Positions 240 through 52,235 of a stretch of DNA of 64,000 nucleotides are shown here, one piece after another (the stretch's first letter is position 1; each line of letters opens with the position of its first letter). Source of the DNA: Gnetum montanum (taxonomy: Eukaryota; Plantae; Gnetophyta); contig MNCI01001941.1 of the NCBI GenBank assembly GCA_015680685.1, positions 737,318 to 801,317 on the forward strand, written 5' to 3'. A program made the position numbers and the translations under genes. The notes beneath the pieces were generated by a model. It saw only the letters and a list, made by a program, of their open reading frames with translations. It was not told where the DNA came from and searched no databases.

Positions 240-2969
240 GATGGGTCCTATGATATCTAGCCCCCATCATTGGAATGGCCATGTAATTTTTGTAGGATGC
301 AACTCAGTAGGTGAAACATGTATAATATTTTCATGACATTGGAATTTATCACACATCTTATCTTTGGCAAGGCAATCTCGTTCCATGCAAGGCCAGTANA
401 ACATTGGAATTTATCAGACATCTTATCTTTGGCAAGGCAATCTCGTTCCATGCAAGGCCAGTAATATCCTAGGCATATGATTTTTGCTGCCATAGACCTG
501 GGAGCTATGTGTCCTCCACATAGTCCTTCATGGACTTCATTAACGATTTTTTATGCTTCTTCCCCACTAATATAAATTAGCAATATCCCATCAAAGGAGC
601 ATTTGTATAAGGTATTATCTCCTATAAGGACATACTGTCAGGCTCGCTTTTAGATCACATCCTTTTGAGTGAATGTCAAGCCCTGTGGGGGTTCACCATG
701 TTGAAGGTAGGCTTTAACATTAGCATACCACTCTTGGGAATTAGTAGCACTTACGGAGGTGACATGTACCGCTTGAGTGATATGGTTTGTGCACTTCGTT
801 ATCGAAGCAGGTAAATTTGTGAATAGGCATGGCAACATGTTAAATGCTAGCATGGCTAAGGCATCCACTATAGTGTTCTTGTTGCATGGCACATGTTGGA
901 TGTCTACCATTGTAAACTATTTCAGTAGACTCTTGGCCAAGTCACAATAAGGCTATAAATGTGAAGCTTTACAGGCATAGATTTCAGTAATCTAGTTGAC
1001 GATGAGCTGGGAATTGCCTCGGACTGCCAAATGTTGGATCTTTAATTCCTAGGCTGCTAAAAGGCCCCTAAGGATTCCTTCGTACTCAACTATGTTGTTT
1101 GTACAAAGGAACATAAAACAGTAAGTGAAAGGTTGAATGTCCCCTGAGGGGAATGTAATGATAGCAGCAACACTACCACCTTGTGTGGTTGAGGTGCCAT
1201 TGAAATGCAAAGTATCTTTGAAGTGTAATGGTATAGGGTTGATGCTATTAACATGTTCGATGGGGAATTCTAGCTCTATGGTTACTTGATCATCGATGGG
1301 TGAGGTTGTGAGCTATGTAGCCATCGCTTGTCCTTTTGTTGATGATTGGGCTACATAGTGTAAATTGAATTATGCCATTATAGCTTTCCATCGAGCTATC
1401 TTTCTGCTTTTGTATAAATTGTTCATGATAGCCCAAAGTACATTGCTCTTGCATATAATGTTAACCTTACTACGGAATAGGTAATGTATCCACTTTTTTA
1501 GCATAAATACTAGGGCAACACAATTTCTTTCTACTTCATTGTACTCCACCTCATAATCTATCAGTGTATGGCTCAAGTAATAAACTGGGATTTCAAAGCC
1601 ATCATCTCTCTTCTGACACAACAATGCTTCGATAGATGTGTCCCAAGTGGCAAGGTAGATTTAGAAAGGCTTATCCCTCTGTGGTGGGTAAAAAATTGGG
1701 AGGTGAAAAAGCTCTATCTTTAAGTCATTGAAGGCTTGTTGACACTGTGCCATCCACTTGAAGTTAATCCCCTTCTTTAGCAAGTGTTGCATGGGGTGTA
1801 ACTTGTTAGTCAACTTTGTTACAAAGCTTATGATAAACTGTATTCTACCTTGCAATCTGCATAATTCTTTAACGTTGGTAAGGGATGCTAGGTTAACGAT
1901 GGCCTTAACTTTGTCAGGGTCCACTCATATTCCAGCTTTCGATACTACAAACCCTAGCATGCATTTGGTTTTAGCTCTGAAAACACATTTATTTGGATTG
2001 AGATGCAAGTCATGCCTGTGACAACGCTTGAGGACTACATCTAGATCAGTGGGATGATCAATAGCTCTCTTAGACTTGAATGCTATATCATCCACGTAAT
2101 CGTTTAGTCTCTCTAAGAGGTAGTCACTGAATATGGACATCATGGCTCATTGATAGGTTATTTCAACATTTTTGAGACCAAAGGACATCATAGTATAATA
2201 AAAGGTTTCCCAAGGGGTCATGAAAGTAGTTTTTAACTAATGCTCTAAATTGATGTGGATTTGATTGTAACCTGAGAACCCATCCATAAAGGACAATAAA
2301 GCATGACCAGCTGTAGTGTCAATAAGTTGCTGAATACTTGGTAATGGGAAGTCATCTTTAATCGTTGCTTTGTTTAAATCTTGAAAGTCTATAAAAATTC
2401 GTATACCTTCCATTTTCTTGGAGACTACAATGTTGTTCGATACCCACTTTGAGTAATTGACCATGTGGATGAAACCTGCTTGATATAGCTTGGTAATTTC
2501 ATTATGTACAGCTAGTGTAATTTTTGGTTTAATTTTTCAAGCCTTTTGATTAACTGCTTTGATACGTGGGTCTAAGACAATGTTATGTTGTATGAGCTGT
2601 AGGTCTAAGCCCAGCAGGTCATTATAGGACCACATGAACACTTTAATGTTGTTTTGGAGAACCTTAGATACGTCCTTTTGTATTTGTGAATCTAGGAGGG
2701 AGCCAAGTTTTAATGTCTTTATTTCCCTCTAGATGTAGTTACAGGTGCTTCGATGAGAGGGTCCTCGATCACATCCCTGGCCTCTAAGTCTAAGGCTTGG
2801 ACCAAATGTTTGGGCCAATCTAGGGATGTTTCCAGGGATACTACAGTGTTGTCAATAGATGATTTCCAGTCTATTGATTCTAAGTTTAGGTGTCTTGTAA
2901 GCTTGCCATGAGGACCCGTCAAGGTTAAAAGTGAATGCAGATCATCTTGCATAGCCATTTTTATCAAAC
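240..2969 (-). pseudogene. Degenerate pol of element A: RT (~1660-2700), RNase H (~1320-1660), additional archaeal-type RNase H (~850-1220), integrase N-terminus (240-~750)
   Basis: RT: IDFQDLNKATIKDDFPLP, SFMDGFSGYNQI, YVDDI. RH: PVYYLSHTL..YNEVERNCVAL. aRH: TNNIVEYEG..GNSQLIVN..NTIVDALA. INT: HEGLCGGH, GYYWPCMERDC, WGLDIIGP. Many stops and frameshifts. Confidence 0.95.
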
Positions 2970-3100
2970 CTATCATAATAAGAAAAAGCCAGGTCAAGTG
3001 ATACTTGTTTGTAGCAACAACATGTAATGAATTTTTGTAAAGTAACAATACAACATAAAATAATCATCAATCGCTGTGTAAAATTTGCAACTCAAAGCTA

Positions 3101-3524
3101 CTAGTTTAAGGTCTTAGTGGACTGTATTGAGACTTGAAATGAATGCTAACATTGCCAGTTTAAGGTTGTAGCAAATCATAACATATTATATAATTTGGTT
3201 TATGATATGGAATGAGTGGTGAGATGCCATATAGGACATGGCAGATTGTTGATATAGTTAAAGCATATGCTAGAATTGCTAATTTAAGGTCTTTGCAGAC
3301 TGCTACTAGGTAGAGTTGAAAGTTAAAACTGCTAGTTTAAGGTCTTTTATGAACCATTAACAACTAGATTTTAAAAGCTAAGATTTGCTAGTTTAAGGTC
3401 TTTGCAAACCATCATGAGGCTACATTGTAGGTTAACGTCCTATGTAAACCAAGATTTCCAGTTTAAGGTCTTAGCAAATCATTAATAGGTAGACTTTGTA
3501 AAGATAGATGGCTAATTTAAGATG
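3101..3524. repeat. Array of 7 copies of motif CTAGTTTAAGGTC
   Basis: Copies start at ~3101, 3155, 3279, 3332, 3388, 3458 and 3512. Confidence 0.85.
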
Positions 3525-3667
3525 GAACAAAATTTTTGGTGGGCCCACTTGTTATTCTGTAGACAATCGCTACGCTAAGGTGTTACTATGACAAAATAGT
3601 GCTACGCTACAAGGGGTATCCCACATTAATTAGGTCATGAAAATGGCAAGTATTTTATTGTTTTGGC

Positions 3668-3675
3668 TATAAATA
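3668..3675 (+). promoter_or_regulatory. Putative TATA box of the antisense gene of element A
   Basis: ggcTATAAATAggg, 143 nt upstream of the inferred ATG at 3811. Confidence 0.6.
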
Positions 3676-3810
3676 GGGGTTTATCCCTAGGTAAACTTGT
3701 CATTTTCATTGTCAAAGCCCAACACCCATACTCAGGGCGTAGCATGATTGCACAGAGAGAGAGCGAACTGGTGTAGCATAGCAATTGACAGGGAATTAGC
3801 AAGCGAGATA

Positions 3811-6800
3811 ATGGCATCCAAAGGTGAACACTAGCACTGAGGACTTGCTAAAGTAGATAAGGTGAAGGACACTCTGGGGCGCTTATCCAAGGCATGCGTT
3901 GAAGTGTAGGAGGAGGCTCTGTCTACTCGGTAAGTTGCTACGTTGCCCTTGTTTTCCAGATGGTGTTATCGTTATTGTGGTAAAATTTGTGTCCACTACC
4001 ACTATTTTGGTTACTGTATTGGCCGCCATGCTGTTATTGTCACTGGTTGATGTATGGATGCTATGCTATGGTTGCATGCAACATCGCCTTAACCACCATT
4101 GTTGAGAATGGTGACTACCTTGTAGTAAGATTTTGGGCAATTCTGAGTGGCATAGTGCATGCTTGACGCAACGTACCATCTTTATGAAGGGTTTAGTTAT
4201 TCGTAAAATTTTTTAGGGTGATATGTGCTTAATCGTAGCATAGCGTGAGCTATTTCGTACAGTAAGATAGGGTTGAGATGATAGGGACATTGAATTTTCT
4301 CTCATCTGTGCTACTTCAAGGCTATAATTTTTTTTTCTTTTTACTGTTACACTTGCTACGTTGCTATGCCTGTTATAGGGGTATGTTTGTCATATTGTCA
4401 TACATCTGCCTATGCTTGTTCATTCACTATCTTGCTACGTTGTGCGTATCATAGTCATCACCCTTAAGCATACATGTAATCGTTATATTGCACACCTGTT
4501 ATGTTGTGGTGTGTGTCATGTAACAATTACTGTAAGGCAAAAACAGTGTTGTTATGCAGTACTGTGCTTAATGGCTATGCTATGCTGTAAGTGCCACTTT
4601 ATAATATCACCTATAATTCTCGACTCTATTTTCTATTAAAGAAAAATTTGCGATCGAGAGAACATGCTACACTACATGCAAAGAAAGGTTATGCTATGCT
4701 ATATGTGAACAGATGATTACACTGTGCTATGTGTAAACTTCACTTGAACATAGTTTCAATGTTTGATGCTTTATTGTGTAGGGTCATGTTGAAGCTCATC
4801 TTGATTGTCCTTGAGATTGTAGGGGTCTTGTGCTTCCTTAGTGAATCGATGGCCAATGTTCCTCCTCCCCATGCATGTGTGGGGTGGCAAGCAGTCTTGT
4901 TCTAGGAGGGTGCACGAGACTTCTTACAATTCCTCCTCTACTATTTTAGTGTGATTGTTTAGTCACACTTATCAGTAGAGATAGTGGTTGCAATTACAAA
5001 AATACTATTTCCCGGGGCAAATTGGGGCATTCTGAAATTTTTGACTAATGGGTCAATTAGGGGTGAGTGAGAAGAAGGCTTCAACTAGTGCCCAAAAGGC
5101 TTGAGGTGCTTAAGTTGGATCTAGGACATGCCTAAGTATAAATGCTATAATTTATACAACACGTTATTCGTTGCCCATTACATGGGCACCTATTTTCAAA
5201 ACCCACCTAGGACCATTTATTATGCCAGTAGGTGAGTTCTATGAGTGTATCTCATCGTGTTGTGTAATCCATGTTACACTAGATAAGGGTGTTAATAGTA
5301 TATATATTTTTTGTATTACCAAGTTTTATGTTGACAGGAATGGTCTTCATGGTGATATAGATGCCTTGGCATTGGCATAGATGGCCTTGCAAGAGTTTTC
5401 CTCAACTGGGAATGTGTGCACCAACATAATAGGCCAATTTGGGGGTGAGTTTAAAACCTACCCAACCTGATATTTCCAATTTTATGAAAAGTGTAAAGAA
5501 GTTGGTTGGTTGGATAGGGAGTGGACATCCCTTAGGCCACTCATCGTTGAAGATGTGCTAGTGGATCTCCCACCATTTCCCATGCCATTTAAACCTAGTA
5601 CGCTAAACTATGAATTTTCTATTATATGTTCAAGAGATGATCAGCTTTTGCTAACTTTTTATTTTTTATTTCTTGAAAACTATTATAGTGGCTAGGAAAT
5701 CCCAAGAGGTCACTATGATCACCTCCATATGTAACAAAACTAACTTTTTTCTCAAGTACGAGGAGGTGGAGGAGACCCAGTGTTGGCTCTGCAATGGGGC
5801 CCCAACCATGCTTGTCCATAAACTTCAAGAGGCTAGACTCATGGACTTATTTTTGGCCATCAACCAAAGTATCCTACCTGTTGAAATACTTTCCCTAGCC
5901 AACTCCTTCTTCAAGAAGGTTGACCGCTTGTGTACATGCATTCACGGTGTACAGGTGGTGTTTGAAATCAACAACCAACTATTCACAAATCTTTTTAGTG
6001 TCCCTTCTAATGGTCTCCCTATAGGAGAATAATCTAAGAAAGATGCAAGCCATCAGGGTAACATTGAGGAGTGGCTAAGGGCGGTAAAGGATCAAAAGGG
6101 GATCTACATCAAGAAGGTCAGGCTAGGGGTGGCCAAAATGATTTACCCTATCTTCCATACCCATGCCTTCCCCAAGCTACTCTCTCAAGGAAAAGTCCTT
6201 GGAGTTGAATAGGCTTGGATAATGAGAGATTTCATGGAAGAGAGAGATCACTACAATTGGGCCAAATACCTTTGCAAAGGCTTGCAAGCTAAAATGGTCA
6301 AACTCCAGAGAAACTTGAGTCCCATTTCAACGTGCACCATGCCTTCTTTATAGCCTACCTGCGGTGTTTTGCAGAATGCTTGTTAGTCTATGAGAATGAT
6401 GTCTAGGTGCTACAGGACTATAGTTAGATTTCCAAACTATGGATTTGCCAAGTCTTTTCTACCACACGATCCCAAGATCTCCTTGAAGATATTAGGGAAT
6501 TATTTTTGATGATGACCAGGGATCGGGTGGCACATGCCTTTTGTGCCTAGGACAGCATGGGAGAGGCACCTCCCATTAACATAGGTAGTGTGATAAGGGG
6601 CGAATGCCTCATTGTAGAAAAAGTGGTGACTAGCTTGCAACATAAGAGGTCCCACCCTACCAAAGAGACTCCCCGTACAAATGAAGAGAGGGGGAAGAAG
6701 CTACAACTCAAACTTCGTAGAGTGCAACCTCTAATTGGTAAGTGTATTTTATTATTTGGCTAATGCTCATTACACTATGCTACGCTAGGTAGCATTGCAC

Positions 6801-7298
6801 AGCGTAGCATCTGTTTCAAGTTGGTATATCTTGCCTACTATAATTATGCTTTATTAGCAGAAGAAGAAGAAGAAGAAGGGGGGGAAGAGGTGATGGCCCC
6901 TAGAACAAGCACAATTGGTGAAGATGAAGAGGTTCTAGCCACAGAGGAAAGGGCCTTGACCAATGAAGAAGGGGCTCAAACCATAGAAGATAGGACCTCA
7001 GCTAGTGAGGAAGAGGCCCTTGTTGATGAAGAGGAAGCCTCAATTGACAAAGAAAGGGTCCCAGCCACTTAGGAAGATGTCCCTATCAATGAAGAAAGGG
7101 CCCTAGCCAATGAGGAAGAGGCCCCCACCAATCAAGAAGAGGCCCCTGCTGATGACCCTTTCGTCGAGTGTAGTTCAATACTGGAGGGGCATATGAATAT
7201 TGAGGATCCTACTATGTTATTAGATCAACTAGAAGGAGAGGGGCTCCATTTTGATGTTGGTGAGTTTGATCACTTGTTTGAAAGTGTATCGATGGGAG

Positions 7299-7358
<60 letters not shown>

Positions 7359-8651
7359 NAGGAGCTTTACACTATCATTTATGTTGTTCATTAGCTTTAT
7401 CATGGTTCTCTTTGCCATGGCTAACATGTTTTACCATGTAGCAGACACCACTGTTGATACATCTGACCCTTCTTTGATCCGCCTATGATCGTGGACCGAG
7501 ACCCCTGACAAATTCACTTTTATGGAGGGGGTGGTTGACGACATGATCGACTTTCTAAAGTAGATTGACCTGGAAGTGGATAAGTTAAAGTTTCTACACT
7601 AGGATTCCTATATTGTTACAATTTCTCTATGTCACTATGATTAATGCTCTTCTATGTGTGGTTGGCAACCTCTCACCTTAAGTGGGACCCCAAGCAAGTA
7701 ATTGAGGTCAACGCTATGCCCGAATTCCCATAGGAGGTAACTGAAGTACCTCGTAACATATATGATGAAGTAAGCAAATGTGCATTATACTCGGCATGCT
7801 CCCTGTGGGAATGCAGGCTTGTAAACGAAGACCTCTAGAAACGGGTGCAAAGGCTCGAGAAGGAGAAGGCTAATCTAACTACTAAGGTGGGGGATCTCTG
7901 ATCCAGGAACAAATTCCTGTTGGCTTGGGATACTAATGATGGTAGTTAGCACACGACCTTCATCAACTATGCAAGATATTGGATGGCCATACGATGCAAC
8001 AATGAATCCACACACGAAATAATCGAATATTACATGCAAATGGACCTTCTAGCTCAAAAGAACCAAGATTGGAAGGATTACAACGCGAAGGTTTATGAGT
8101 GGCGGTAGGCATAGTAGAATCACAAACACATGTATAAAATGGAACATGCCATCTACTATAAATAGTATCATGATGCTTCCATCAAGTTGCATACCTATGA
8201 GGTATTCCTTGATATTCTTGATGCTTCTAGGGCTTATGATAGGTTCATGCAATAGGTGATAGTTAGTGAATCTCCTGAAAGGGAGATGAGTTTTCCTATC
8301 GGTGAGACCACCATTGCCACCTTTTCTCCAGGACCATTAAGATGGACAGCCGTAGAAAAGGAGAAAGTTGCAGCAAACACTGATCTGGGAGATAGGAATT
8401 GGGTTGACATTAACGAGGAGGAGATCTTGCAATGCCTCGTGGCTAGTATGGATTGTATACCTCCCAAAGTGGACGCGGGGCCATCTTAGGTTAGTTACTT
8501 CTTTTTTCTTATTTATGGTGTGATAATTTATTTTATAAAAATATTTTTCGTAGCTCTAACTGATTGTTTTATTTTCTTTGTTATGTAGGATCCAAATGCA
8601 AATGTAGGACCCAATGAGGTAGGGGATGGTGGTGTAGGTGAATACTCATAG
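3811..8651 (+). pseudogene. Antisense 8-exon accessory gene of Tat element A (unknown protein; exon 4 resembles plant-mobile-domain / 'putative plant transposon protein' folds; acidic repeat exon; C-terminal coiled coil)
   Basis: Exons 3811-3929, 4782-5231, 5338-5597, 5689-6737, ~6858-~7300 (end lost at poly-C/N), ~7442-7579, 7669-8489, 8589-8651. GT-AG boundaries (two mutated) give in-frame joins, and the peptides align with the copy in element B. Confidence 0.85.
6925..7155 (+). repeat. 21-bp (7-aa) degenerate coding tandem repeat, acidic (EERALTN/EEEALVD/EEEAPTN...)
   Basis: About 10 heptads visible in ORF 6821-7072 and its continuation past a CAG>TAG stop. Confidence 0.8.
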
Positions 8652-8846: not shown

Positions 8847-8966
8847 CTAGTTTTAGGCCATTTCGGGCTATCACTAGTTTTAGGCCATTTCGACCTGTTG
8901 GTAGTTTTAGGCCATTTTGGGTCGTCAAATGATGGTAAAGAAAAATTTTACTAGTTTTAGGCCTTA
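8847..8966. repeat. 27-bp-period array of motif CTAGTTTTAGGCC
   Basis: Copies at 8847, 8874, 8901 and 8951. Confidence 0.85.
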
Positions 8967-9149: not shown

Positions 9150-12100
9150 GTAGCTGCTTCATAACCCATCATGGGCTCGATGATGCATAAGGCTGAGGGG
9201 CTTTGTTGCGATATTCTTCTATATCGCTATCTACCACTTGAAAAGGCAACTCGGTCCACATAGTTTGATTTTCTGAGTCGACATTTTGGGCTAGCACATT
9301 AGCCAAATAAGTAGCCTCAGTGGGGATAGGTGCTTCATTTTCAGAAGGTTATTACTTCTAAACCATGCTCCATCTCAACATTGTTTATTGCTTGGGTGGC
9401 CACTTTGTCACCATAGGTTACCACCTCCCTGCCCACGTAAGGTAGGTGGATCTCTTGATGTATGGATGAAGAGACAGCTTTGAGTTGGGCTAACCATGAC
9501 CTCCCTAAGATCAGGTTAAACCCAGGCATCTCTTCAACCATGATGAATGTCGTGCTTGTGGGGAACTGGTCCCCTGACACAGTTGTTGTGGACAACCCCC
9601 TTTACCACTACCTATGACATGAGGTTGTTGTGGGTTTGATTTAATCAACCAAGCCTATTTTTTCCACTATGGGGAATGAGATGACATTTTTAGTAGCCCC
9701 TTCATCAACGTGTACTCTTTGGATCTTGTGCTCATCAACCCAAATTGTGATGAACAGGGGTACTATTGTCACCCGACCCTTTTCAGGGTCATCCTTGATG
9801 GACTCATCATGGAATGTCAACTAAGTTAGCCATGGTTCTTCAAGCATAGAAGGAAGCATAACCGCATGGATTGCTTTCTTCTCCACCTACATGTTTTCAT
9901 CAATCGGTATCAACATTAACATGTGAACCAAGGCCTCGCATTGTGCAATGGAGGTCATTACCAAGTCATACAAGCTTAAGGTTGTATTCTTTTATTTTAG
10001 AGCCTGTTTGACTTGAGTAAGGGAATTTAGAAGGTCTTGTCCATTTTCTTGTTGTTTGCTACCCTTCTCTTCCTCTATTTATCCTAGGAGATGAATCTCT
10101 CATGGAGGAGAAGTTTCAAGTTTGGGGCTAGACCTTCTTGGGTTGGATGGTGATGATTGTGTGTGCATAGTGCTGTCAATTGTTGATGATGAAGGGGACA
10201 TAGGCATGGAGGAAAAGGGGCTAGGATTGGAGGGACCTAATGCTATACGTTCCTTGGCCATCTTGTCCATTATACACTCTTCCCCTTTTTTTGAACAAGG
10301 AGGCTATGGGGGTGTTTTAGATTTGCTCTGTGTGGCGAGGATAGTTGATGGTTTCGGCCCCCTAATGACAAATGGTGTTTGTGGTGTTACCATGGGTGAC
10401 GACGTAGTTTTAAACATGAAGGGTGAAAGGGCAAATGTTTGAGGGGGAACCTTGAGGATGAAGGGTTGTTGTGGCATCCTTTTTGCTATTGTTGATGCCT
10501 CTATGCTACATTGAGACACATGAATCACAAATGACTACTGTGGTGGTTTTGGATTACTGTCGATGTCAATTGTGTTGATAACATACCTTGCATTGTTGGT
10601 GTTCAGGGGGTCCTTGTAGACATGCATGGATTGATTTTCAGGGCATACAGGGTTACTTTCATCTAGAACCAACTTCCCCTGATCAATCATCCATTGGATG
10701 TCATCTTTTAATGCTAGACAGTAATCTATGTCGTGACCACAAAGTTGATGGTAGTCACAGAACCGTTCCAGCCGAAAGTTCTTAGGAACTGGCGGCTCAT
10801 TGGGCATAGCCAAGGAGGGGTTTCTAAGAAGTTTGCAATACCATTGATGCCATTTGATCACCTCCTCCAACATCTTCTTATGTTGAATATACCCAGCCCC
10901 CAAAAATTACTTCAAAATTTCTGAAGGCTTGACACATAGAGGGGTGTATTTGGAGAGGTCTTTATACTCAAAGTTGGGCTTAGGTTGGGTTGATGCCTCT
11001 GGTGCTAACGTTGAGGGTTGAGCAGCATTATTTAAGCTAGGCATGGGGTTAGTTGATGTTGTGGCTTCTTTTTTGTTGTTGTTGTTGTCGGGTTTGGCCT
11101 TGTTTGCCACGACGACCACCTTGGCTATCGTAGCCTTGCCCTTCTCTTTGTCCTTTTTGACATATGCATTTTTGTACGCAACATAGGTCGAGTCTTTACT
11201 AGCTTCGGCTATGTCTTGGATGATCTTCATTTGGGTGAAAGCTGAGAGAGCATGGGGCTAGGTAGTATAGTTTTAACTTAATAAAGTCATTTACTACCCC
11301 CTTGAAGATAGCCAACAGATGGGCCTCCACGATAGGCTCACCGATCTCATTCAGGGTAGCGCTCCACTGTTGTATAAAATTTTGCACTAACTCCAATGGG
11401 TCTTTCTTGACACTTATCAACTAATCTAGTGTGACCTTTGGCTTTAAATTATACTTGAAGTGGGTCACAAACTAAGTCAGTAGCTCCTCTAGAGTTGAGA
11501 TGAAGATGCATGGGAGTGCACGGTACCAATCTAAAGCTTTGCCTATTAGAGACATAGCAAAGACATGAATAATAGTTTGTAGCCACTACTGCAACAACAA
11601 AGATTCGGATCTAAACATGACTAGATGTGCATTGGGATCACTCTCCCTATTGTATTTTGTGAGTTGGGGGAGTGGCATCCCAGGGGGTAACATGAGCATG
11701 GGAACAAATGGGCTGATGGAGTCGTCATGGTAGAAATCCATGACCTGCACTGTGTTGGATCCAATAAATTTGAGATGTTTAATCTCTTCAGTGAGGGTCT
11801 AGATAAGTTGGAATGCTTGGTCCAAACCTGGGGATGATGTAGATGGTTGTGGGGTTGTAGGGGCAACCATTGTTGATGACATTGTAAGGGTAGTAGCCTG
11901 GCTCATAGGGGGTACCGTTGGGGCTGCTCCTACGAAGGGTGTTGCCTATGCAGTCCACCACCCAGTGGGTGGTGCTATTGAAGCGGTGGCGTCTAGGGGT
12001 GTTGTAGGGTTAGTCACTTGCGTGACTGATGGGGTGGACCACAGTCACATGCTTGGTTGTACCGTTTGTGAGACATGGTATGCTTGGTGGTAAACATAGT

Positions 12101-12930
12101 GTGACATTTGGGAGGATTGTGAAACAAGAAGAGAAGTGGTCGAGGCACACCATGCAGTTGGGGGCAGGGCTGCCATAATGGTAGGGTAGGCATGAACAAT
12201 GGAATGGGAGTAGGAACTCCTTGTAGCTGTGAGGTAGGCACAATGTGCACATACGGCAATGTAGCTGTGACCAGCATTTGGTACGATGACAAGATAGAGT
12301 GAGGAGGGAGAGTGCCTGGGAATGAAACTAAAGGGATAGTATGTTGGTACGCTAAGGGTACAGGATGGCTACCGATGGCTAATGAAAGTGTAGAGTTGCA
12401 GCAGAGTCATGGTAATCATAAAAGAGGTAGATGTAAAACGAGGGTTTGACTGGAAGACCACAGTGGGAGGGATAGTCGTAGGGTAAGTCTAGCCACCATC
12501 CTTGGATTGGGAGTCCAGGTCTTCTTGTCCATCCTAGAATACTTCATCATAATGGGATGCCATGTCCTGCTATTCCCTAGACCTAATCATTTGTATGAGT
12601 TGGTTCAGGACCCATTGATATGATTCGGTTAATGAGATAATGATATCAAGGGTGGGGATAAATTTCCTCTTGTTCCAATGAAGGAACTTGAAGTTATGTT
12701 TGTCTTTGAGTTCTTAGTGATCTAAGGGTAGATTTTCCTAGATCTTTACACAAAGGAAGTCATAATGCTCTGTGTCTTGCACTAATAATTTAGGTAATAG
12801 ATGTCAGATCCTAAGAGACTGGCATGGTGCCAGCACTGGGCTTGGTGGTCACTCGATACCTATGATGCTTTGAGTCAAGAAAGGAACCTCAAGGTTGGAT
12901 GTGGGAACTACGGTTGTTGGCGGAATCATT
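9150..12930 (-). pseudogene. Degenerate gag-protease of element A
   Basis: Gag core (AMSLIGKALDWYRAL, ESVQNFIQ-like ELVQNFIQQW), Tat-type knuckle FCDYHQLCGHDIDYCLALK, protease VHVDEGATKNVI...FNLILGRSWL..VSSSIHQ. Start position uncertain. Confidence 0.88.
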
Positions 12931-13021: not shown

Positions 13022-14996
13022 TGTCGTGACCAGTCTACACCACACGATGCGTAAACAACTACGAGGGTATCATGTTTACGCTAGTGGGTGACAGGGTACA
13101 GAAAGCATGTAGGACTACCCAAAGGACATAGAAAGGGCACCGAAAAGGCCCTCCTTCTAGAGCCAAAAACTATTATGACTGAAAATGTTAGTGGCTGGAA
13201 CACCAAGAGGTTTTTGGGTGAACAGTTTAACCCTGGATTTGTGTGAGGACCATGTTAGAGAGAAACGGAAGTGGGGTGCCCTAAACGGTCTGGTTGATTA
13301 GATAGGGACTTAATCATTGTGTCTTAACCTTTCGTAAATGCTTGTTTCATAAGTGAGGCACGTGAAGTAAATTGATAATCAATAAGTGTAAAGTGGTAAA
13401 AATAGTGTGAAACAACGTTGATAGTAAGCAAATAGAAAAACAGACTTGGGTGAGAAAGTGCACCATCCCAAGGTCGTGGGTCTAATCCTTTGCTTTGTTG
13501 AAAGGTGTACAATAGAACACGCAACATGGAAGAGGCACAACTTACACAAAGTAGCATGGTCATAAATCTCTAAATTGTAGAGCCAACCAGCAAACTCAAA
13601 GCCAACTAGAGTGCTAAAAATTGTAGACTATGCTCTCCGAAAGCCAACTTAAAAGCCAATCACCACCCTAGGCTGACCCTTCAAGCATTGTTTGCTGGGG
13701 GTATTTATAGGCCTAGGAGTAGGAGAAAAATGTGTTCTGGATGCCATGTGTCTTGGGCCCCACAAGGTGCAAACATGGCTATACTATGTAGGTGTGTGAT
13801 GCTAGAGGTGAGCTTTGTTATGCTATGACCATACTACTAAAACTTCATGTGCCAAAATCTAGTGTGCTAACAATGCAAGAAAAATGGAGCCTATGCTCCA
13901 AGACTACGTCTTCCTTAATCTTGCAAGTAGGGTCAAGCGTAGGAACAATTTTTGGGGATTGACCAAGGGTATGCAAAATGAAGAAAACTTGCTGATTTTG
14001 TCTGGCAAAGAGATATCAGGATGAGAATAATCATTGCCAAAAAGTTATAGAGCTAACCGAAGACGTCTTGATGCCTCCATGCTAGTGTTGCACTACCCAT
14101 GTTGTTCAGCACATTGGCGTAGCATAAGTAACTGCTCGCTATGCTGTGCTATGGTACGTAGCATAGCATAGTGTAGCCACCGGTCTTGACAAAAACCTTA
14201 CGTAGGAGCTGAGAGCATTTGTGTGAGGATTGGTCAGGCAAAAAACTGAAACTTTTGTCCTCCATGCCAAAAAGCCTTCAAACTTACTAAATTCATCTTT
14301 GAAACATTTCTACCATTTTTGCATCATTGCTACGTTGTGCTACACTATGTAGCATAGCACAACGTAGTAGCCAATGTATCATGCTTCCTTATTCAATCTG
14401 CCATTTTCTACCAAGAAACCTTGCTTGAGGCCTGAGGACTAAGTGGGATAATCAGTTTTGGAGGCTAAAGCATTGCCAAATGCAATCTTCTTGTTGGAGT
14501 CACTTGGCAAAGGGGGGCCTTTTTGTGCTTTGTCCCTATTACACTTTACTACGCTACATAGTGCAACATAGCATAACACCTTGTGTTGGTGGAGCAAGTT
14601 TGCTTGACGGTTGCAACATGGGCAAATGCTTTGGAAGACCAACTTGTCATCAACTTACATCTTGGATGCTTGATTGATCTCTTCAAGGCTTGCTATGTAG
14701 CGCAGCGTAGTATATTTCTATGCTAGAAAACTTGCTGAACTATTTTTCTCATCCCGAACACTTTCAAAAAGTCCTAGCATGGTCCATGGGTAGACTGCCA
14801 GCTAGGTCAATTGTCTGGTTGGGTAGGCTGGAGAGTCTAGCAGACCTGTCAACCTTGGAGATAGAAAACTTGCTAGACTATATAGTCTATCCTTGGTGCC
14901 TACACCATTCTGTTGGCCCATCAACTTGTAGAAATCCTTGCCAAAATTCCAAGACTCTATTGAAGCATGAGGGTCCTAAAATTTTATGGTGTTTCA
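13022..14996 (-). repeat. 5' LTR of element A (~1.97 kb)
   Basis: Plus-strand termini TGTCGTGACC...aaaattttatggtgtttCA match element B termini TGTTGTGACC...aaaattttgttgtgtttCA. Minus-strand TATA (tatttatag at ~13702). Confidence 0.8.
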
Positions 14997-25523: not shown

Positions 25524-26008
25524 AGTCATGTCTAATGCTTTCCTCAAATACATCCACCAATTGCTCCTGTACTGCAAGCCTCACACTTGGACTTTTAGTA
25601 AACACATCTAAAGCTATGTGGGCTAGGAGTAGGAGGTTATCACATTTGATTAAGCTTCACTCATCCATCCTAAACTTATAGATAACTAAAACAAGAATAA
25701 AAAATTATAACCTAAGCAGTTAATGAAAGAAAAAAAATCATGAACCAAAGATAACAATCTTACTTACCATGTATGTGGTAGATGATGCCTAGAGGGGTTT
25801 GGAACCATGTATGGACATAGTGGCTAATAATCAAAGTGTTGTTCATGTTATATTGGTTGAACTTAGGCATCTTCCAAAATTTAAATAATTTATGAGTGTT
25901 CACAGTAGTCATGTCATCATGCCTCTCTCCCTCTGTGTGAACATTAGGTTCATTAATCAAGAACTTGACTATCAAGCTAGAGGAACTAGTTAGAAGGGTT
26001 TCCACTAT
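25524..26008 (-). pseudogene. Third copy (G) of the Tat accessory gene: end of exon 2, intron 2, start of exon 3
   Basis: IVETLLTSSSSLIVKF...FWKMPKFNQYNMNNTLIISHYVHTWFQTPLGIIYHIHG, then GT donor(s) at ~25762-25767, an ~85-nt intron, then FRMDE(R)SLIKCDNLLLLAHIALDVFTKSPSVR. Both peptides align to A and B. Confidence 0.85.
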
Positions 26009-28947
26009 TGTTGATGCCATCTTTAAGGTCAAGTTTTTCATCTTTTGGTATCTTAAAACATTAAGAAAAATGGAGAACAAGGTTGTTGTGTGGTGGTATG
26101 ATTATTGTGATTGTAGGACAAGAAATTGGATTGAAACAAGAAGGTTTGAGAAAGATTAAGAACATGGATAGAAAATGAAGAATTCAAAGTGTAAAGGAAA
26201 GTTAAAGAAATATGTCTCTAAGAAATAGTAGATGTCTTCATAGAATTGAGGGTTACATAGGTAAAGGCATCTTCAAGAACTAGTAGATGTCTTTCATCAG
26301 ACATAGATGTCTTCATAGAATGCAAGCTAGTTTCAAAAAGATGGCTTTCACTAGACAAAGACATCTTCCTAGAATAAAGACTAGTTTAAGAAGGATGTCA
26401 TTTCCTAGGCAAAGATATCTTTCCAGAATGAAGGAAAATATAGAAAGATGTCTTAGACATGAAAAAGATGTCTTCCATGACCATTAGCTAGTTAGTGCAG
26501 GAGTTCAAAGATGAATTTGGAAACATGGTAACTATAAGAAGACATCATACTCATTGGAAAATGTGCAAGCTTTAGTATTATCATTGTGTAATCATTTAAC
26601 AATTATTGTAATCATTATTGCTACTCATTGTTTTATCTTTTGTCTATTGTAAAGTATATTGTATCTTAAGTACAAGGACTAGCAAACCAATTTGCATTCA
26701 TCCCTTGTAGTTATTATTCTCTCTTGTTGCCCTTCAGGGTTGATGTGCTTCTTGTAGGAAGGCATCTTGATTGAGCTTGTTAGGATCTTGCTAAATTGAG
26801 TGGTTGTGTAGCACCACAACACTCTCGAGCATAGCTCAAGATTGTAAAGGTTGTGGAAGCTTAGAAAACACATTCTAATCTTATTAAAACCTTACAGGAT
26901 TGAGTGGTTGGTGTAGTGTCACAACACTCTGAAGTGGAGCTTAGATCTTATACAAGGTATGGTACCCTTCAAACCATATTTAAGAGAAAAAAAGTTTAGA
27001 GTTGTTCTTGTGATCTACCTTCCAAGTGTGGACTACCCAAGTTGGGGAACCATGTTCAATTTGGTGTGTATGCTTCATTCAAAGAATTTAAATTAGGAAA
27101 ACTTATTTATCCCTCCTCCTTCTAAGTTTAATGATCCACAAGTGGTATTGAATCCTGGTACTCTTGTGCTCTACATCCATTTGCAAGAGTGAACATGGAA
27201 GGGGTAATCAACATCAAAAACATCTAGATAAAGAGCCTAATGTACATCATCAATTGGTGTGTTCAATTCATTTATCACATCTGTTATAAAGGTAAGGATC
27301 TCATTTCCTTCCTTACATTCAAAAATATAGAAGACTATGTTTGTGAAGTTGACAATTCTTGTGATTATCAAAATGACATTTCCTTTGAAGAAGGGTATGA
27401 GATATTTTGCCATAAAATTCTCTCTTTTTGAAATTTTTGCATTGAGATAAAATATTTTTTACATGTCAAGGAAGTAAAAATTAAAGTTCTTAATGATGAA
27501 TGCTCGTATCTCAAAAACAAAAAAAATAAACTTAGACCTTCAAGTTGAGATTCAAGCACTACCAAATATGATTGAGCAAATGAACAAGAGTTCTATGAAG
27601 AAGTTCAAAGATCAAAAATAGTGTTTATCAAGGTTTGGAAAATCTTCTAAACCTAAAAATTGAAATGCTTCTTTTGTAGTAAGTATGATCATATTCAAGC
27701 TTTTTGATATCTTAGAATGCATCACTACTCTTGGTCTTTGCAAGACTAGCCTAGAAAGAAAACCATGTAGGTTTGGGAAGGAAAAGAAAGAAAGATTGAA
27801 AAGAATTTGATGGCTCAAATTACTTTCTCTAAGGACAATACTAGCACATGGTATATTGATAGTGGGTGTTCGAGGCACATGATAGGTGACAAATCCTACT
27901 TCAACCACTTCATAGAACAAAATTGTGACACATTCACATTTGGAGTTGACATGGAAGCACCTATAATAGTTATTGGTATCATAGGAGGTAAAGGTAAGAG
28001 ATTACCAACTATGAACAAAGTGTTTTTCCTTGATGGATTAAAACATAGTCTTCTTAGTGTAATTTAGATATATGATTCAAATTTTAATGTTAGGTTTTCA
28101 AAAGAAAGTTGTAGAATAAAAGATTTATCTATAGGGAATATTATGATTGAAGGATCTAGAAAACGAAATGTGTATAAGACTATTTTTTGAAATTCTTCTA
28201 ACCTTGAATCCAAGTGTTTAGTAAGTTGTGTAGATGGTACATGTTTTTGGCATAGGAATCTAGGCCACATAAATAAGAAAGTTCTTTAGACCTTGGTATC
28301 TAAGGAAATGGTCAGTGGTCTCCCTAAGCTCAAAGACTTCAACCTAAATACATGTGAGGCCTATCAGAAAGGAAAATAAATGAGGGTGAGAGTTGGTAAG
28401 AAAATTTGTATTTCTACTACTCTTCCTTTAAATATACTTCATATGGATGTGGTTGGTCCAATTAAAACTCTTAGCTTTGGAAACAAAAGATACTTTTTAA
28501 CCATTATTGATGATTATTATTACTTTACTTGGGTTTCCTTTTTATATCACAAAGATGAGGTGTCTGATCATTTTTTGAGAATTAGTAATCAGATCCAAAA
28601 ATAAAAATGATATGTTATTAAAGTCATTAGAAGAAATAATGGAGGTGAGTTCAAAAATGAAAATTTTAAAAACTTTTGTCAAATGAATGGTATTCTACAT
28701 CAATTCTCTACTGCATGAACTCAACAAAATGGGGTAGTTGACCAAAAAATAGAATCTTGAATGAGATGGGAAGAATCATATTAAATGATCAAATTCTTCC
28801 TCATACTTTTAAGCTGAAGCCATCAACACTACTTGTTACAAGTCCAATAGAGTTATGGTAAGAAGATTCACTTCTAAAATTCCTTATGAAATACAAACTC
28901 ATAGGAAACCTTTGGTAGCTTATTTTCATGTTTTTTGTTCAAAATGT
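26009..28947 (+). mobile_element. SIRE-like Ty1/copia element F (5' LTR 26009-27140, PBS ~27143-27155, gag-PR-INT), cut by element B
   Basis: LTR begins TGTTGATG exactly where G homology stops and ends ttatttatccctcctccttctaag...ccaCA, followed by TGGTATT. Copia domain order follows. Confidence 0.85.
27195..28947 (+). pseudogene. Degenerate copia gag remnant, protease and integrase of element F
   Basis: CFFCSKYDHIQAF knuckle, WYIDSGCSRHMIG, WHRNLGHIN, LHMDVVGPIK..YFLTIIDDYYYFTWV, YFHVFCSKC. Confidence 0.93.
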
Positions 28948-30415
28948 TGTTGTGACCAAAAATCTCATTTGTTGGAAGAAAACCAAGGATCCTTGGTGTA
29001 AGGAATTCTTCAAATCAAAATCCCTAGGACCTCCATGAGAGAAATGGGATTCAAGGCACCCTGTCTAGTCTGGTAGATCAACCAAGGACTTATGAGATGC
29101 AAAATGTAGGAGTATAAATAGATCCAAAAAGTGCATAGAAAAAAATTTAATTTTAACACAAACCTCAAAACTTAAAAATTTATTGAGAAAGAATAAAGAA
29201 TAAGTTAGAGAAATGTGTACAAATGGTGCTTGGATGACCAGATAGGGGGTTCACTTATGCAAGAGTTCAAATCCCATTGAAGTTGATGTGATTTTCTCCA
29301 TGATCTAGGTGTTAAGCCACTCTTGATGCTATCGAACCTTTCTTCACTAATACAACCTTAGATCTATAAGTTGGGTCACTTCTAGGACATGAGAAAGGTG
29401 GAAAATTTGGATGCCAAATTGCTCCATGCTAGGGTTTGAAAATCCCATAGGTGTGACATTGACATAAAAAATACACAAATCTCAAGGCCATAATGCTTCC
29501 ATGTTAAGGTTCAAGAGAATGCATGTATGGGAACTTTCAAGAGCTCTTGAGTGCTTGAAAATGCCCTAAGTGTAGAATTGTAAAATTAGCTAAACTTTTT
29601 TGAAAAATTATTGGAACCAAATTTTCTTTTATGCCCAAAAGTTGTTGAACCTTGTCAAAAATTTCTAAACAAATTCTAAAACCTCTAAATGATGTTTGAG
29701 GTTATCTTTTATAGGATGTTTGGGCCATGAATGGGGCTGTAAATTGGTTGTGAAATGGCTACAAATTTACTGTAATTTTAGGTGAGATGGATATCCAAAT
29801 TTAGGGGTTACCATACATAGTAAGTTCTTTTCCCCATGGTCATTCCATTTACTATAAATATTAACTAGGGCACACCTATCACACTAGAGATGAATCTTCC
29901 ATGCTATGTTCTTCACCATGCTTATTGAAGTGGTTGGTCAATGCTGAAGTGCATCAAGTGATGAATTTTTGCTTTTGTGGCTTCCATACTAGGGGGATTG
30001 AGTTTTCCATATTGGGAATGAAGACTCCACAGAGGGGGGAAACTTTCACATTTAGGGGGGAAACTTTCTAGGATAAGGAAAAAATTCCATGCTGGGTAAA
30101 AAACTTCTAGGCTAGGGAAAAAGTTTCTAGGCTATGCATGTGGTCTCCATGGTGAAGGGGAAAAGTTTCCAAAACCCCCACCCTTCCATGCTATGGGTAG
30201 TTGAGATCTAGCCCCCTACATGTGTTTCTAGCATAGAAAAATGTATACCCCCCATATAACCCATCAAATTATTCTTTTTCTCATTTNAAAGTATGTGAAA
30301 TTTCCCTTTATGGGTTACAATTTTCACATTTATATGAAGTTTTGCTTTGGGTTTCATGGGGTGAAAGTTACATGATGAAGATTGGTTATAACATGAAAAA
30401 TTTTGTTGTGTTTCA
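28948..30415 (-). repeat. 3' LTR of element B (~1.47 kb; N at 30287), PPT at ~30418-30429
   Basis: TGTTGTGACC...gtgtttCA followed by atggtccctctttg (minus strand CAAAGAGGGACC). Confidence 0.8.
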
Positions 30416-30651
30416 ATGGTCCCTCTTTGTTGATGCCAAGAGGCACTAATAAAGAATAGAAAACACTATAGCATATTATACTAGTAAAATGCATATAGGC
30501 CACATGAAAATTAGGCTCTCCAAGTTACCAAGGTTGGTTTTTTAAGGCCATGGTGGACCATGGTCTTAGTTTAAGGCCCTGTCAAGTCATGTTGCTAGTT
30601 TAAGGTCGTAGCAAACTATTGAAAGTAGGATTTCTTGATGATGATTATTGG

Positions 30652-33600
30652 CTACATGTAGTATGGCTTTAGATAGGAATGATTGACCAGATTGGCCAAC
30701 CAATTTCCATCCATGTTAACTATTTTGAATGCTCTATTCCCATAGGCTCTAGTGATAAGGAAGGGCCCTTCCTAGTTTGCTAAGAATTTTTTGGCATGCT
30801 AACAGATGACCTTCAGGAGTAGGTCCCCCTCCTTGATCTTGTGCATGGTCAAGTCAGGTTGATGTTGTCACTTCTATCTCTCTTGATAATGCTTGATGTG
30901 ATCAAGCACTTGCATACACCACTCCTCCACTGAATCTAGGGCTATTGTCTTCAACTCCTTGTTCTACTCATTGTTGATGAAGTTGATCAAGGCTACTCGA
31001 AGCAATGGCACCTACAATTTAAGAGGTAAAATAACTTCAAAACCATAAACAAGGCTATAAGTGGTCATGCTAGTTGTCATGTGATAAGTTATTCTATATG
31101 CCCATAGTGCATGGACAAGCCACTCATGCCACTTCTATTTGCTATTGTTGAGCATCTTCTTGAACAAGTTGATGGTGGCATTGTTGTTTACTTTTGCTTG
31201 CCCATTAGCTTAAGGGTAGTAAGGTGACAAGAAAGAATGCTTAATGTCTAGGTTGTGACAAAAATACTTGGTTTCTTGGCTACTAAATTGAGGTCCATTA
31301 TCCATAACTATGGTCATGGGTATGCTAAAATGGGAACAATGTCATCTAGGATAAATTTGCAAACTTTTTCAGATGTGGTCTTCCTTAGGGGAATAGCCTC
31401 AATCCACTTGGTAAAGTATTAAGTTGTGGTGATGATGAAGCTATGTCCTATGGAAGACTTATGCATTATGGGTCCAATGATATCAAACCCTCATTGTTGA
31501 AATGGCCATATTATCTAGGTCTTATGTAACTCAGTTGGTGATACATGTATTATATTTCTATATCATTGGCATGTGTCACATTGCTTAATATTTTGCAGGT
31601 AGTCATGCTCCATATGGGGCCAATAGTAGCCTAACTATCTAATCTTATTAGCCATGGCTCTAGGTCCTATATGTCTTCCACAAAAACCCTCATGAACCTC
31701 CTCTAGGACTATTCTAGATTCAATTTTACCTAAGTACTTTTGGAGCATTCCATCATAGGAGCATTAACATAATGTGTTATCACCTACAATGACATATTGC
31801 TTTGATTGCTTATGTATGGCATCCTTTTGAGTAGTAGTCATGCCATGTGAGGATTCACCATGTGTAAGGTAAAATTTGATATCATCATACCACTCCTTGA
31901 TAGGAGTAGTATGAATGATGGCCACAAAGGTATCCTCAATGTCCTATGTGATAGCAATAGCATAGTCCATAGTTAAGATGGGCAACTTGCTAAACACATT
32001 TGGCATCACACTAAGGGCTAGTATTGTAATTTCATTAGCTATGGAATTTTCATTTCTACGTATGTATTGGACATCAACATCTATGAATTGTTGTAATAAC
32101 TACTTCCATAGGTCATAGTAAGCTTGTAAGTGCGTAGCTTTGAATGCATATACTTCAATTACTTGGTTAATCATGAGTTGTGAATTGCCTTTGATGACTG
32201 GGCATCTAATTCCTATGTCATGAGCTACCATGTTCCTCTAATCAAACCCTCATGTTTTGCTATGTTGTTCATACATGGGAACTCAAAAAATAGGCAAAGG
32301 GTTGGATCTCACTAGATGGGAATGTCATAATGGCAGCAACATTAGCCTCATGGGTAGTTGAAGCTCCATCAAAGTTCATGACTGCCTCATAACCCTTGAG
32401 CACTTGGCTAACTGAGTTAATGTATTCATTAAGAAACTTAGGATCTATGATTTCTTGGTCATCAACAGGTGAAACTATTGGGATATACAACTACTTTCGT
32501 AGATGTTGGTCATTATGGCTCTGAGTATGTTGTCCTTGTAAATTACGTTGACTTGGCTTCTAAAGAGGTAGTGTCTCCATTTCTTCAAAGAGAATACTAG
32601 TGCTAAACAATGCTTCTCTGCTTCATTGTATTGAGTCTCGTGGGCAACTAATGCATGGCTAAGGTAGTATACAAGCATTTTTGCATCATCATCACATTTT
32701 TGATAGACTAGAGTGGCAATGGATGTATCACAGATGATGAGATAAACATAAAATGGTTTACCCTCTTGTGGAGAATAGACTATCAGTAGTTGTGTGAACT
32801 CTTGCTTAAGGTTTTCAAAGGCCTCTTGGCATTGAGCTGTTCACTCATAGTGAATTCCATTCTTAAGCAAGTGTTGCATGGACTATAAATTATCCATAAA
32901 CCTAAAAATAAACTATAACCTACCTTGTAATCCCCAAAGCTCTTTATGGTTGGTACGTACTGCCAATTTAGATATGGCCTTAACCTAACCAGGATGTATG
33001 TGTATTCCTACTTCAAAGACTACAAAGCTAAGCATATTACTGGTCTTGACTCTAAAGACATACTTCTTAGGATTAAGCCTAAGATCATATTTGAGACATC
33101 ATTTAAGCACAAGATCTAGGTCATTAGCATGCTCATTGGCTATTTGAAACTTCATGGCTATGTTATCTACGTAATCATTAAGAAAACCTAACATGTAATC
33201 ACTGAAGATATAGGTCATGGCTCTTTGGAATGTTTCTCTAGCATTTTAAAGGTTAAAGGGCATTATAGTATAATAAAAAGAACCCCATGGGATCATAAAG
33301 GTCATGCTAAGTTGGTGCTTTGGGTTTATCCTAATTTGATTATATCCTAAGAATCCATCCATAAAGGACAGTAAGACATGTCCAACTATAATATCAATGA
33401 GTTGATCAATACTAGATAAAGGGAAGTCATCCTTGATAGTTTCTTTATTTAGGTCTCAAAAATTAATTCAAATATAGATACTCCTATTTTTCTTAGGGAC
33501 TACCACTATGTTGGCTACCCATCCTGCATAATCGATAACATTAATGAAACTTGCTTGGTAAAGATTTGAGATTTCATTGCAAACTACCAAGGCCAAATCA

Positions 33601-34080
33601 AGTCTAATCTTGTGAAATTTTTGCTTAACTAGTTTAATGGTACGGTCTAGTATGATGTTTTGTTGGACTCGATGTGGATTTAGGCCTAGCATATCTTCAT
33701 ATGACTAGGAAAATGCCTTAATGTTTTTTTTGTAAGATCTTGATGATATCTTGGGTACATTGAGGCTCTAGTGAGGAACTTAGTTTAAGGGTTTTCTCCT
33801 CACCACTATGTGTTGTGATAGGAATCTAAACTAGAGGGTCTTCACTTATGTCTCCCATTTCTAAGTTAAGAGTTTTGACTAGGTTTTCAGGCCATTCTAG
33901 AGGTTTCTCTATTAAGGCTATGTGGTCTACAAGAATCTAAGGCTTAAGATCTAGGCAATCAAGGTAGATACACCATTTAACAAAAATGTGAGATCCATGT
34001 AGACACAAAGGCAAATTAATTTACTGCTAGGTACTCATACTTTGATCTTGCATGTTAACCAAGGGCATATTAAGTGGCAC
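30652..34080 (-). pseudogene. Degenerate pol of element B (RT-RH-aRH-INT)
   Basis: WVANIVVVPKKN, SFMDGFLGYNQI, VYYLSHALVAHETQYNEAEKHCLAL, aRH MNFDGAST, integrase core, and C-terminal LKPYYM*. Confidence 0.95.
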
Positions 34081-34399
34081 CTAGGTAAACTGAATAAATA
34101 ATATTAAAATTCCATAAAACATATGCAACTCTAATGCAATCAAAACCATCCAAAGTCATCAGGGAGATAACGTTAATTTGGAAAAGTGTAATAGAGGTGA
34201 ATAATAGATCACATAAAGGTGAAAAAAGGGAAATTATAAAGCTAAAAATGGTCAATAAGGCCATAATTTTGCCAATTTTAGACCTTCATGGGCCATGATG
34301 CTAGTTTATAGTCTTCATGGACTATGATTGTAGTTTAAGGCCTTAATAGCCCATGGTCATATGGTGTCAAATGGTGGTTAGAGAAGGTAAAACCCCACT

Positions 34400-36480: not shown

Positions 36481-37076
36481 GCTCATGTTTTACCCACTTT
36501 TGAAAACTTGATGTTGAAAAAGATAGGTTTGCGTTAAAAAAGAGAAAAACATTTGTAATTCTAATGAATTTATAAAATAATAAGCATGTTTCCATGCTAA
36601 GCATGATATTCCCAATGGGGATGCATGTGGTTAAGGTTTTCATGATCTTTTAAGTGTTAAAATTGGTAAAAATCTCAGTGTTGTTGCAAGTTTTGGTTAA
36701 GAATGAAGGTGCAGGGTGGGGGCCACAATCCAAAATTTTAAAATTTTGAAAAGTGAAGTTGTTTACCACCAAAAACCAATGTGAACTAGACTTTCCCTTC
36801 TTGCACTTTAGTGCACTTGTTGTTATGCTACACTGAATTGGAAATTGGGGTTTCAAGGTGTGCATTTAGGTTTTATATGACTTTTATATGTCAAATTTTG
36901 CAAATTTTGATCACAACTATCATTCTACAACAACAATGCATTGGAGGAGAGATTTGGTAGAGGTTCTTGTGATAGCCAAAACCATTTCCTAGTGTGAAAT
37001 CCTCCCATCTACCCTACAACCAACATAGAACTCCTATATTCTCATAATCTTCATCATCCTTAGCATTGACCCTGCC

Positions 37077-47572: not shown

Positions 47573-47630
47573 CAAACCAACAATTAGTTCTAATACTATA
47601 TTTTGCAACATGAGTGGAGAAGGTTCACTC

Positions 47631-52200: not shown

Positions 52201-52235
52201 TACTTACCTATACCTACCTTACTCTTGTGAGGGCG

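Follow-up and report, generated by a model that had tools for sequence, protein, structure and literature searches.

Two related LTR retrotransposon families in the window, the 64,000 nucleotides of Gnetum montanum DNA analysed here, carry short, family-specific, CpG-centred motifs with a common core, and these motifs are concentrated in non-coding DNA well above chance. Both elements also have a predicted, spliced-looking antisense gene just upstream of RT, homologous between the two. As far as the DNA allows it to be described, the feature appears as motif boxes like those of Sireviruses, set in a Tat element whose antisense gene has an unusual position.

Layout of elements A and B and their neighbours

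The window consists of nested, strongly CpG-depleted DNA (CpG observed/expected 0.0–0.5 per 2 kb), and its retrotransposon proteins found their matches among land-plant records. On the minus strand, element A runs from a putative LTR (14714–13171) and a PBS-like stretch to gag-protease and, after a 6.2-kb gap, to RT-RH-aRH-integrase (Table 1). The segment 13780–14712, to which a first-pass annotation had drawn attention, is the U3 part of this putative LTR, with a TATA-like box downstream at 13702–13711. The LTRs of A and B were assigned on the basis of PBS-, PPT- and TATA-like signals; within the 64-kb window no second LTR was found for either element, and no gag or protease for element B.

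In element A, aRH lies between RH and integrase (Pfam order RT_RNaseH, RVT_3, Integrase_H2C2), the position described as defining Ogre/Retand-type Tat elements (PMC6317226), and the same domain order is also known from non-angiosperm Tat clusters (PMC13468544). By domain order element A is classed as a Ty3 element of Tat/Ogre type, its subclade only tentatively, since the nearest database RTs are just 43–47% identical to its own. An RT-based scan of viral contigs gave no match, and an RT-based metagenome scan gave 18 loci with identities of only 28–40%. Just 5′ of the RT frame both elements show a pyrimidine/AG stretch resembling an acceptor, together with an MQD start that aligns between them (A 2929–3010, B 34020–34110, minus strand); the entire antisense gene may lie inside an intron of the Ogre kind, or translation of pol may begin separately. 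Single Ns are present at 399, 7359, 30287 and 60428, two of them between near-identical duplicates of 58–65 bp and one after a 58-base C run, which suggests that these positions are assembly joins.

Table 1. Positions of the main features of elements A and B in the window.
Feature	Positions	Strand	Basis or remarks
Element A putative 5′ LTR	13171–14714	−	PBS-like TGG stretch ending ~13165; start resembles B's post-PPT start; TATA-like box
Element A gag-protease, decayed	9151–12570	−	tblastn vs Tat/Ogre polyproteins E 1e-14 to 2e-6; Pfam Asp_protease E 0.085
Element A RT-RH-aRH-integrase	240–2960	−	Pfam RVT_1, RT_RNaseH, RVT_3, Integrase_H2C2; continues past window start
Element A antisense accessory gene	3790–8650	+	between PR and RT; ~8 predicted exons; translations, tblastx vs B
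Intron 1 of A's accessory gene (predicted)	3930–4781	+	GT..AG ends; 5 RCTAYRCTA copies and further half-sites
Two direct RCTAYRCTA copies	3569–3610	+	32 bp apart; 60–100 bp 5′ of accessory TATA-like box (3667–3675)
Palindromic cassette inside intron 4 of A's accessory gene	6769–6808		fold z −4.7
Palindromic cassette, 40 bp	14138–14177		4+4 pentamers, one central unit imperfect; fold z −2.3
Palindromic cassette, 40 bp	14329–14368		4+4 pentamers; fold z −5.5, 0/200 shuffles
Shorter inverted pentamer cassette	14548–14577		2+4 pentamers; fold z −1.7, 9/200 shuffles
Pentamer run near LTR start	14692–14711		
Element B putative 3′ LTR	28961–30244	−	PPT and start; inner end not fixed
Element B RT-RH-aRH-integrase	30621–34040	−	pol as in A; 56% identity with A's RT
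Element B spacer with ~181-bp array	34041–37077		upstream of B's accessory gene; 13 TCCAYRCT, often inverted pairs
Element B antisense accessory gene	37078–42100	+	homologous to A's, 25–38% by segment

Other repeats were also recorded in the window. Element C (56431–64000, minus strand) is a Ty3 element in a less decayed state; its integrase is followed by an extra ORF in sense orientation (~60500–57700), which has a coiled-coil-like tail (by eye) and is without a credible Pfam match. A CG-rich 14-mer is found in the LTR of C (57286) and just 5′ of the TATA-like box of the extra ORF (60896), a length reached by 4 of 100 shuffles. Element C2 (15046–25523) has LTRs that share 84% identity, no TSD match where its borders were read and an extra ORF 33–36% like that of C. 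Clusters of YRATATYR (4 and 5 copies) lie upstream of the two LTR TATA-like boxes of C2, with 2 further copies upstream of its extra-ORF TATA-like box; the word was chosen post hoc and is not significant family-wise (35/200 and 24/200 shuffles). The repetitive segment 14715–15045, which adjoins the start of A's LTR and holds B-like words, is possibly a fragment of another family's LTR; no alignment with B's LTR was found. A decayed Ty1/copia-like protease-integrase fragment with a weak integrase match lies beside B's putative LTR (27500–28960, plus strand). Large tandem duplications at 47155–56420 and 42379–45521 (about 4 kb at 85%; 1.5 kb at 67%) are without recognised ORFs, and in that at 47155–56420 a separate word, GATGTCCCA, is enriched.

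Family-specific motifs in non-coding DNA

The motifs were counted as RCTAYRCTA for element A and TCCAYRCTA for element B, YR allowing for CpG decay. In the 5242 bp of non-coding DNA of A, RCTAYRCTA occurs 18 times against 0.63 expected, a number reached by none of 300 dinucleotide shuffles, with 6 against 0.08 expected in 13780–14712. The 9497 bp of A coding DNA hold a single copy (0.42 expected), and both counts were the same after refinement of the borders. Elsewhere the word was found once in B coding DNA, three times in the other 30.8 kb and not at all in the 11436 bp of B non-coding DNA. TCCAYRCTA was counted 13 times in B non-coding DNA (0.25 expected; 0/300 shuffles), once in A non-coding DNA and never in B coding DNA. 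The per-family enrichment proposed as a check by the first-pass annotation is seen in the non-coding A/B counts of the two words, 18/0 and 1/13. Fisher's test for family specificity gave p 4e-8 and the binomial test for avoidance of coding DNA gave p 1e-7 and 0.002, values that overstate the case, since the words were picked with the data in view and tandem copies do not count as independent events.

A de novo search of 8-mers, collapsed for deamination, is the fairer test and was in agreement: it gave CTAYRCTA as the top class in A's LTR (7 copies) and, separately, in A's internal non-coding DNA (12 copies), in each region beating the best class of all 200 shuffles. For element B the word class topped the spacer (0/200 shuffles) and a shifted form of it topped the LTR (4/200); in 36000–37077 alone the class was not outstanding (178/200). 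The same test showed nothing enriched in the LTRs of C and C2. The longest word shared by LTR and accessory promoter was marginal (reached by 5/100 shuffles in A, 24/100 in B and 4/100 in C).

The two words have YAYRCTA in common, which is enriched in A's LTR (16), A's internal non-coding DNA (26), B's LTR (6) and B's spacer (16), with 0/100 shuffles in each case, and is not enriched in C or C2. The flanks of this core differ by family, with GCT at 14 of 40 A sites and TCC at 13 of 24 B sites. The ACGCTA-like core suggested earlier for both elements holds in this longer form; as the 6-mer AYRCTA it is uninformative, being enriched in coding DNA too. The plain GCTAC/GTAGC pentamer reaches 6.1/kb in A non-coding DNA against 1.4–2.0/kb in other elements, which is only ~3–4 times denser, and so neither pentamer nor 6-mer discriminates alone.

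Other statements of the first-pass annotation on the motifs were largely borne out for element A. Pentamers were present at all the places named (~3570–3610, 4235, 4355, 4665–4730 and 6775–6810), the 18 to 1 distribution agreed with a location mostly outside exons, and the proposed hairpin arms (14330–14342 and 14355–14367, within the cassette at 14329–14368) were exact reverse complements, each unique in the window. For element B, TTCCA(C/T)GCTAGG had been placed in the LTR and in the 34400–36600 array; the exact 12-mer occurs only at 35133 and 36429, outside the LTR, and the five quoted LTR sites are TCCAYRCT variants (29423, 29898, 29983, 30086 and 30185), four of the five upstream of a TATA-like box near 29710. 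Motifs in introns, which the annotation had also named, were found in A, whereas B's introns (2117 bp) contain no TCCAYRCTA.

In both families the motifs precede the TATA-like box of the LTR as well as the accessory gene. All ten tandem pentamer runs of the 64 kb fall inside element A. Inverted motif pairs are found in A as well as in B; of the 22 close neighbour pairs of A, 15 have the same orientation. The intron 4 cassette, 3 kb inside the accessory gene, is 87% like the LTR cassette at 14138–14175 over 38 bp (blastn E 1e-6). Five of the seven inverted segments tested fold better than at least 99% of shuffles (z −2.3 to −5.5), the segments having been chosen for being inverted. In all four DNA runs, from four organisms, the LTR cassettes at 14138 and 14329 were in the deepest of 30 depth bins (5.9 and 7.9 times the LTR median in run X1), with that at 14329 in the highest, peaks in which conservation and several copies per element are not separable. 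Approximately 60–150 contigs depart at each cassette edge into unlike flanks in the four DNA runs, which indicates that the cassette is a module reused in many contexts.

CpG observed/expected was 0.33 within 60 bp of motifs and 0.38 beyond 400 bp, showing no retention halo, and the motif centres are deaminated (TG, CA or TA) in 15 of 20 cases in A and in all 18 in B. Judging by this trace, which is indirect and need not be kept by an old dead copy, the A and B copies appear to have carried methylation at the motifs over a large part of their existence.

It should also be noted that a second motif, CTAGTTTAAGGTC-like, is common to both elements, in contrast to the family-specific words, and is always on the plus strand (3101–3470, 8847–8963, 30566–30607 and 34301–34342). 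Its short arrays are found on both sides of A's accessory gene and, in B, 5′ of RT and directly after integrase.

The antisense accessory gene

A's accessory gene is predicted to begin at ATG 3790, behind the TATA-like box, and to end at ~8650, with GT..AG-type introns; numbers 1, 2, 4 and 7 are clear, the rest being in part decayed or interrupted by an N. Exon borders, drawn from frames, splice signals and homology, and the splicing itself are predictions. The A and B genes align in eight collinear tblastx segments (sum E 4e-53), and the end of intron 1 is at the identical place. Their identities by codon position (0.46/0.62/0.27, 0.52/0.58/0.37 and 0.48/0.56/0.33) show protein-level constraint on the plus strand. 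At 25–38% amino-acid identity between A and B, against 56% for RT, the protein has diverged faster than RT, and both gene copies are broken by stops and frameshifts. A's protein has an acidic middle part and, at its C-terminus, a coiled coil predicted by eye. An exon fragment at 25775–25870 (minus strand), within a stop-free 113-aa frame (25760–26101), represents a third member of the family, with 50% over 32 aa; the homologous fragment 25763–26101 had no usable match in the ESM Atlas.

The accessory protein has no Pfam match. With its core as query, a word-indexed search of longer proteins gave 0 of 378 candidates, HMMER against 1.84 billion representatives gave none at E ≤ 0.001, a metagenome scan confirmed none of its 262 pattern matches, and no PDB sequence matched. 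AlphaFold models reached pLDDT 43.6 and 35.1, with unusable folds, and at such confidence the lack of a Foldseek match at E ≤ 0.001 for the first model (pLDDT 43.6) and the best VIA Z of 5.5, to unrelated helical bundles, are meaningless.

A likeness of the core to PMD/DUF7745, noticed by eye, was discarded when it proved not significant against 116 Malvaceae domains plus the seed. The tests of PMD/VANC kinship had two decayed sequences as query, and thus little power: a DUF7745/PMD HMM run over all six frames, its profile narrow (Malvaceae DUF7745), did not find the accessory protein, hhalign against DUF7745 gave a score of 19, within the shuffled range (top shuffles 20–28), and the mean Smith-Waterman excess against PMD/DUF7745 was weak for A (1/60 shuffles) and absent for B (9/60). 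No PMD or TRP28 match was detected for the accessory protein, and a DUF7745 protein had no match below E 0.4 among PDB sequences.

Four RNA runs of the same species, of which 2–26% each was sampled, gave 117–512 sparse reads, nearly all <95% alike, with no splice joints listed. In the literature covered, by titles and passages, no antisense multi-exon gene between protease and RT was found. The supplementary data of PMC6317226 may include elements with such a gene, and ORF screens restricted to at least 250 codons outside the polyprotein would miss it.

Known systems and possible roles of the motifs

The closest anatomical precedent, overlooked by the first-pass annotation, would seem to be the repeated-motif (RM) boxes of Sireviruses, which have been proposed as host-factor cis-elements, their function being left open (PMC2829016), and shown to be siRNA hotspots (PMC4728375). 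As in the published description of the RM boxes, the motifs of A and B are symmetric, CG-bearing, family-varying and of high copy, and cluster in the LTR's upstream half, ahead of its TATA box, as well as 5′ of an accessory gene. Sireviruses are described as Ty1/copia elements with a CGG-CCG core and a sense 3′ env-like ORF, whereas here the carrier is a Ty3 Tat element, the core is YAYRCTA, the multi-exon accessory gene lies in antisense 5′ of RT and, in A only, introns hold motifs too.

Much of the layout is familiar from what is described for Tat/Ogre/Retand elements (PMD-coiled-coil, TRP28, Grande gene23), namely the RT-RH-aRH-INT order, gag-PR apart from RT, an antisense accessory gene with its own promoter and family-specific internal tandem arrays. 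Retand elements have antisense ORFs 3′ of pol and family-specific arrays (PMC11963269, PMC7264820), while Tat lineages have PMD-coiled-coil ORFs in 5′ or 3′ position and, in Ogre, an intron is spliced out between gag-PR and pol (PMC4408406). The extra ORFs described for these elements lie 5′ of gag or 3′ of pol, whereas here an intron-containing antisense gene of ~5 kb fills the gag-PR/RT gap.

The motifs had originally been likened to the VANC anti-silencing system of VANDALs, Mu-like DNA transposons in which binding and demethylation were demonstrated (PMC5735166, PMC10398659). The sequence half of this analogy stands, with family motifs in non-coding DNA beside a constrained antisense gene; a tie to VANC, DUF1985 or PMD and a CpG-retention halo were not seen. 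Common to both, as far as the VANC papers describe it, are family-specific tandem motifs of 8–9 bp in non-coding DNA including introns, related motifs in related families, with tandem forms that differ between them (here pentamer runs only in A and the 181-bp array in B), and a fast-evolving element-encoded protein. The candidate system described here differs in its Ty3 LTR carrier, in having no detected DUF1985 homology and in its palindromic CpG-centred motifs. On present evidence the feature is not assigned to the VANC family. Retrotransposon-encoded PMD domains exist, PMD-A being Gypsy-encoded (PMC5418596), and PMD-C/MAIN is reported to resemble VANC DUF1985 in structure (bioRxiv 2024.09.27.615353; PMC13547354), which makes a VANC-like role plausible in principle.

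The reading tentatively preferred, at a little under an even chance, is that the accessory protein encoded by the element itself would read the repeats as recognition sites and so keep both promoters active. The protein would be a multimeric DNA binder that occupies the family words ahead of the LTR promoter and ahead of the antisense gene, and its binding would either open chromatin in a VANC-like manner or simply activate transcription in a feedback loop; as the A and B copies are dead, such a system would have been at work in younger members of the families. This is suggested by the motifs upstream of both TATA-like boxes in A together with the full cassette deep in intron 4, which match the introns, intergenic and terminal non-coding regions bound by VANC21, and by the different flanks around a common core in A and B, as the VANC21 and VANC6 motifs differ by at least two bases (PMC5735166). 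The codon-position signature, kept while the accessory protein diverges faster than RT, and the inverted motif pairs of both families also point to recognition by the accessory protein. The other accessory-ORF elements, C and C2, have different CG-flanked words near both TATA-like boxes, a weak, post hoc result that was counted weakly in its favour. Against it stand the lack of a homologue, Pfam or PDB match for the protein in the searches above, the missing CpG halo, the deaminated centres and the motif-free introns of B. The common YAYRCTA core would fit a single host factor equally well, and with only two related families the divergence of motif and protein is indistinguishable from common descent.

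That host transcription-factor sites were amplified in U3 and 5′ of the accessory gene, co-regulating the two promoters, with the flank merely copied along with the core, is somewhat unlikely. Such sites would account for the core being enriched in both A and B and not in C or C2, and for the promoter-proximal position of the motifs, whose reverse strand, TAGCGTR, resembles NAC-type CGT[GA] sites. They would not explain the full cassette in intron 4, distant from any promoter, or the family-fixed flanks. The Sirevirus RM boxes, which have the same layout, were proposed as host-factor sites, but the authors of that study found no single host factor for them (PMC2829016). A narrower version of recognition by the accessory protein, suggested by analogy, is also unlikely: a remote PMD/VANC-fold multimer, encoded by the intron-containing antisense gene in the protease-RT gap, would bind the family-specific CpG palindromes and remove the silencing of its own family.

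It is improbable that the palindromes act as RNA hairpins in export, packaging or splicing, possibly with the accessory protein as a Rev-like binder, or mainly as small-RNA sources tuning silencing. The better-than-shuffled folding of five of seven segments, selected as inverted, would agree with this, as would the hairpins formed by Sirevirus palindromes, described as siRNA hotspots (PMC4728375), and the Rev- and Tat-like roles proposed for antisense ORFs (PMC7264820). However, many copies are direct or single, with most close neighbour pairs of A in the same orientation, the copies at 3569–3610 are upstream of the accessory TATA-like box, and it is the word that recurs rather than pairing alone. 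A neutral by-product of slippage or template switching, in which a pentamer microsatellite and the 181-bp array were tolerated only outside coding DNA, is quite improbable: A's units are tandem pentamers, part of B's copies are in a tandem array, any insertion would be purged from coding DNA and the depth peaks may stem from several cassettes per element, but the word is met again at sites not linked to one another (LTR, promoter, introns 1 and 4), in either orientation and with unrelated flanks, B has copies outside the array (five in the LTR and four at 36430–36591), and the common core was kept in two families whose LTRs no longer align.

What accessory ORFs do in plant LTR retrotransposons is treated as an open question in PMC7264820 and PMC11963269, and so is the role of repeated LTR palindromes in PMC2829016. 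In the titles and abstract openings covered, no sequence-specific anti-silencing in an LTR element was found. Elements A and B, from two related families, each pair a candidate protein with a candidate site specific to the family, so that cross-binding (protein A on motif A or on motif B) is directly testable. If the narrower version with a PMD/VANC-fold multimer is true, an LTR retrotransposon would have sequence-specific anti-silencing, and a general account of Tat extra ORFs and of Sirevirus-like repeat boxes would follow; a positive cross-binding result would extend VANC-style anti-silencing to the largest component of plant genomes.
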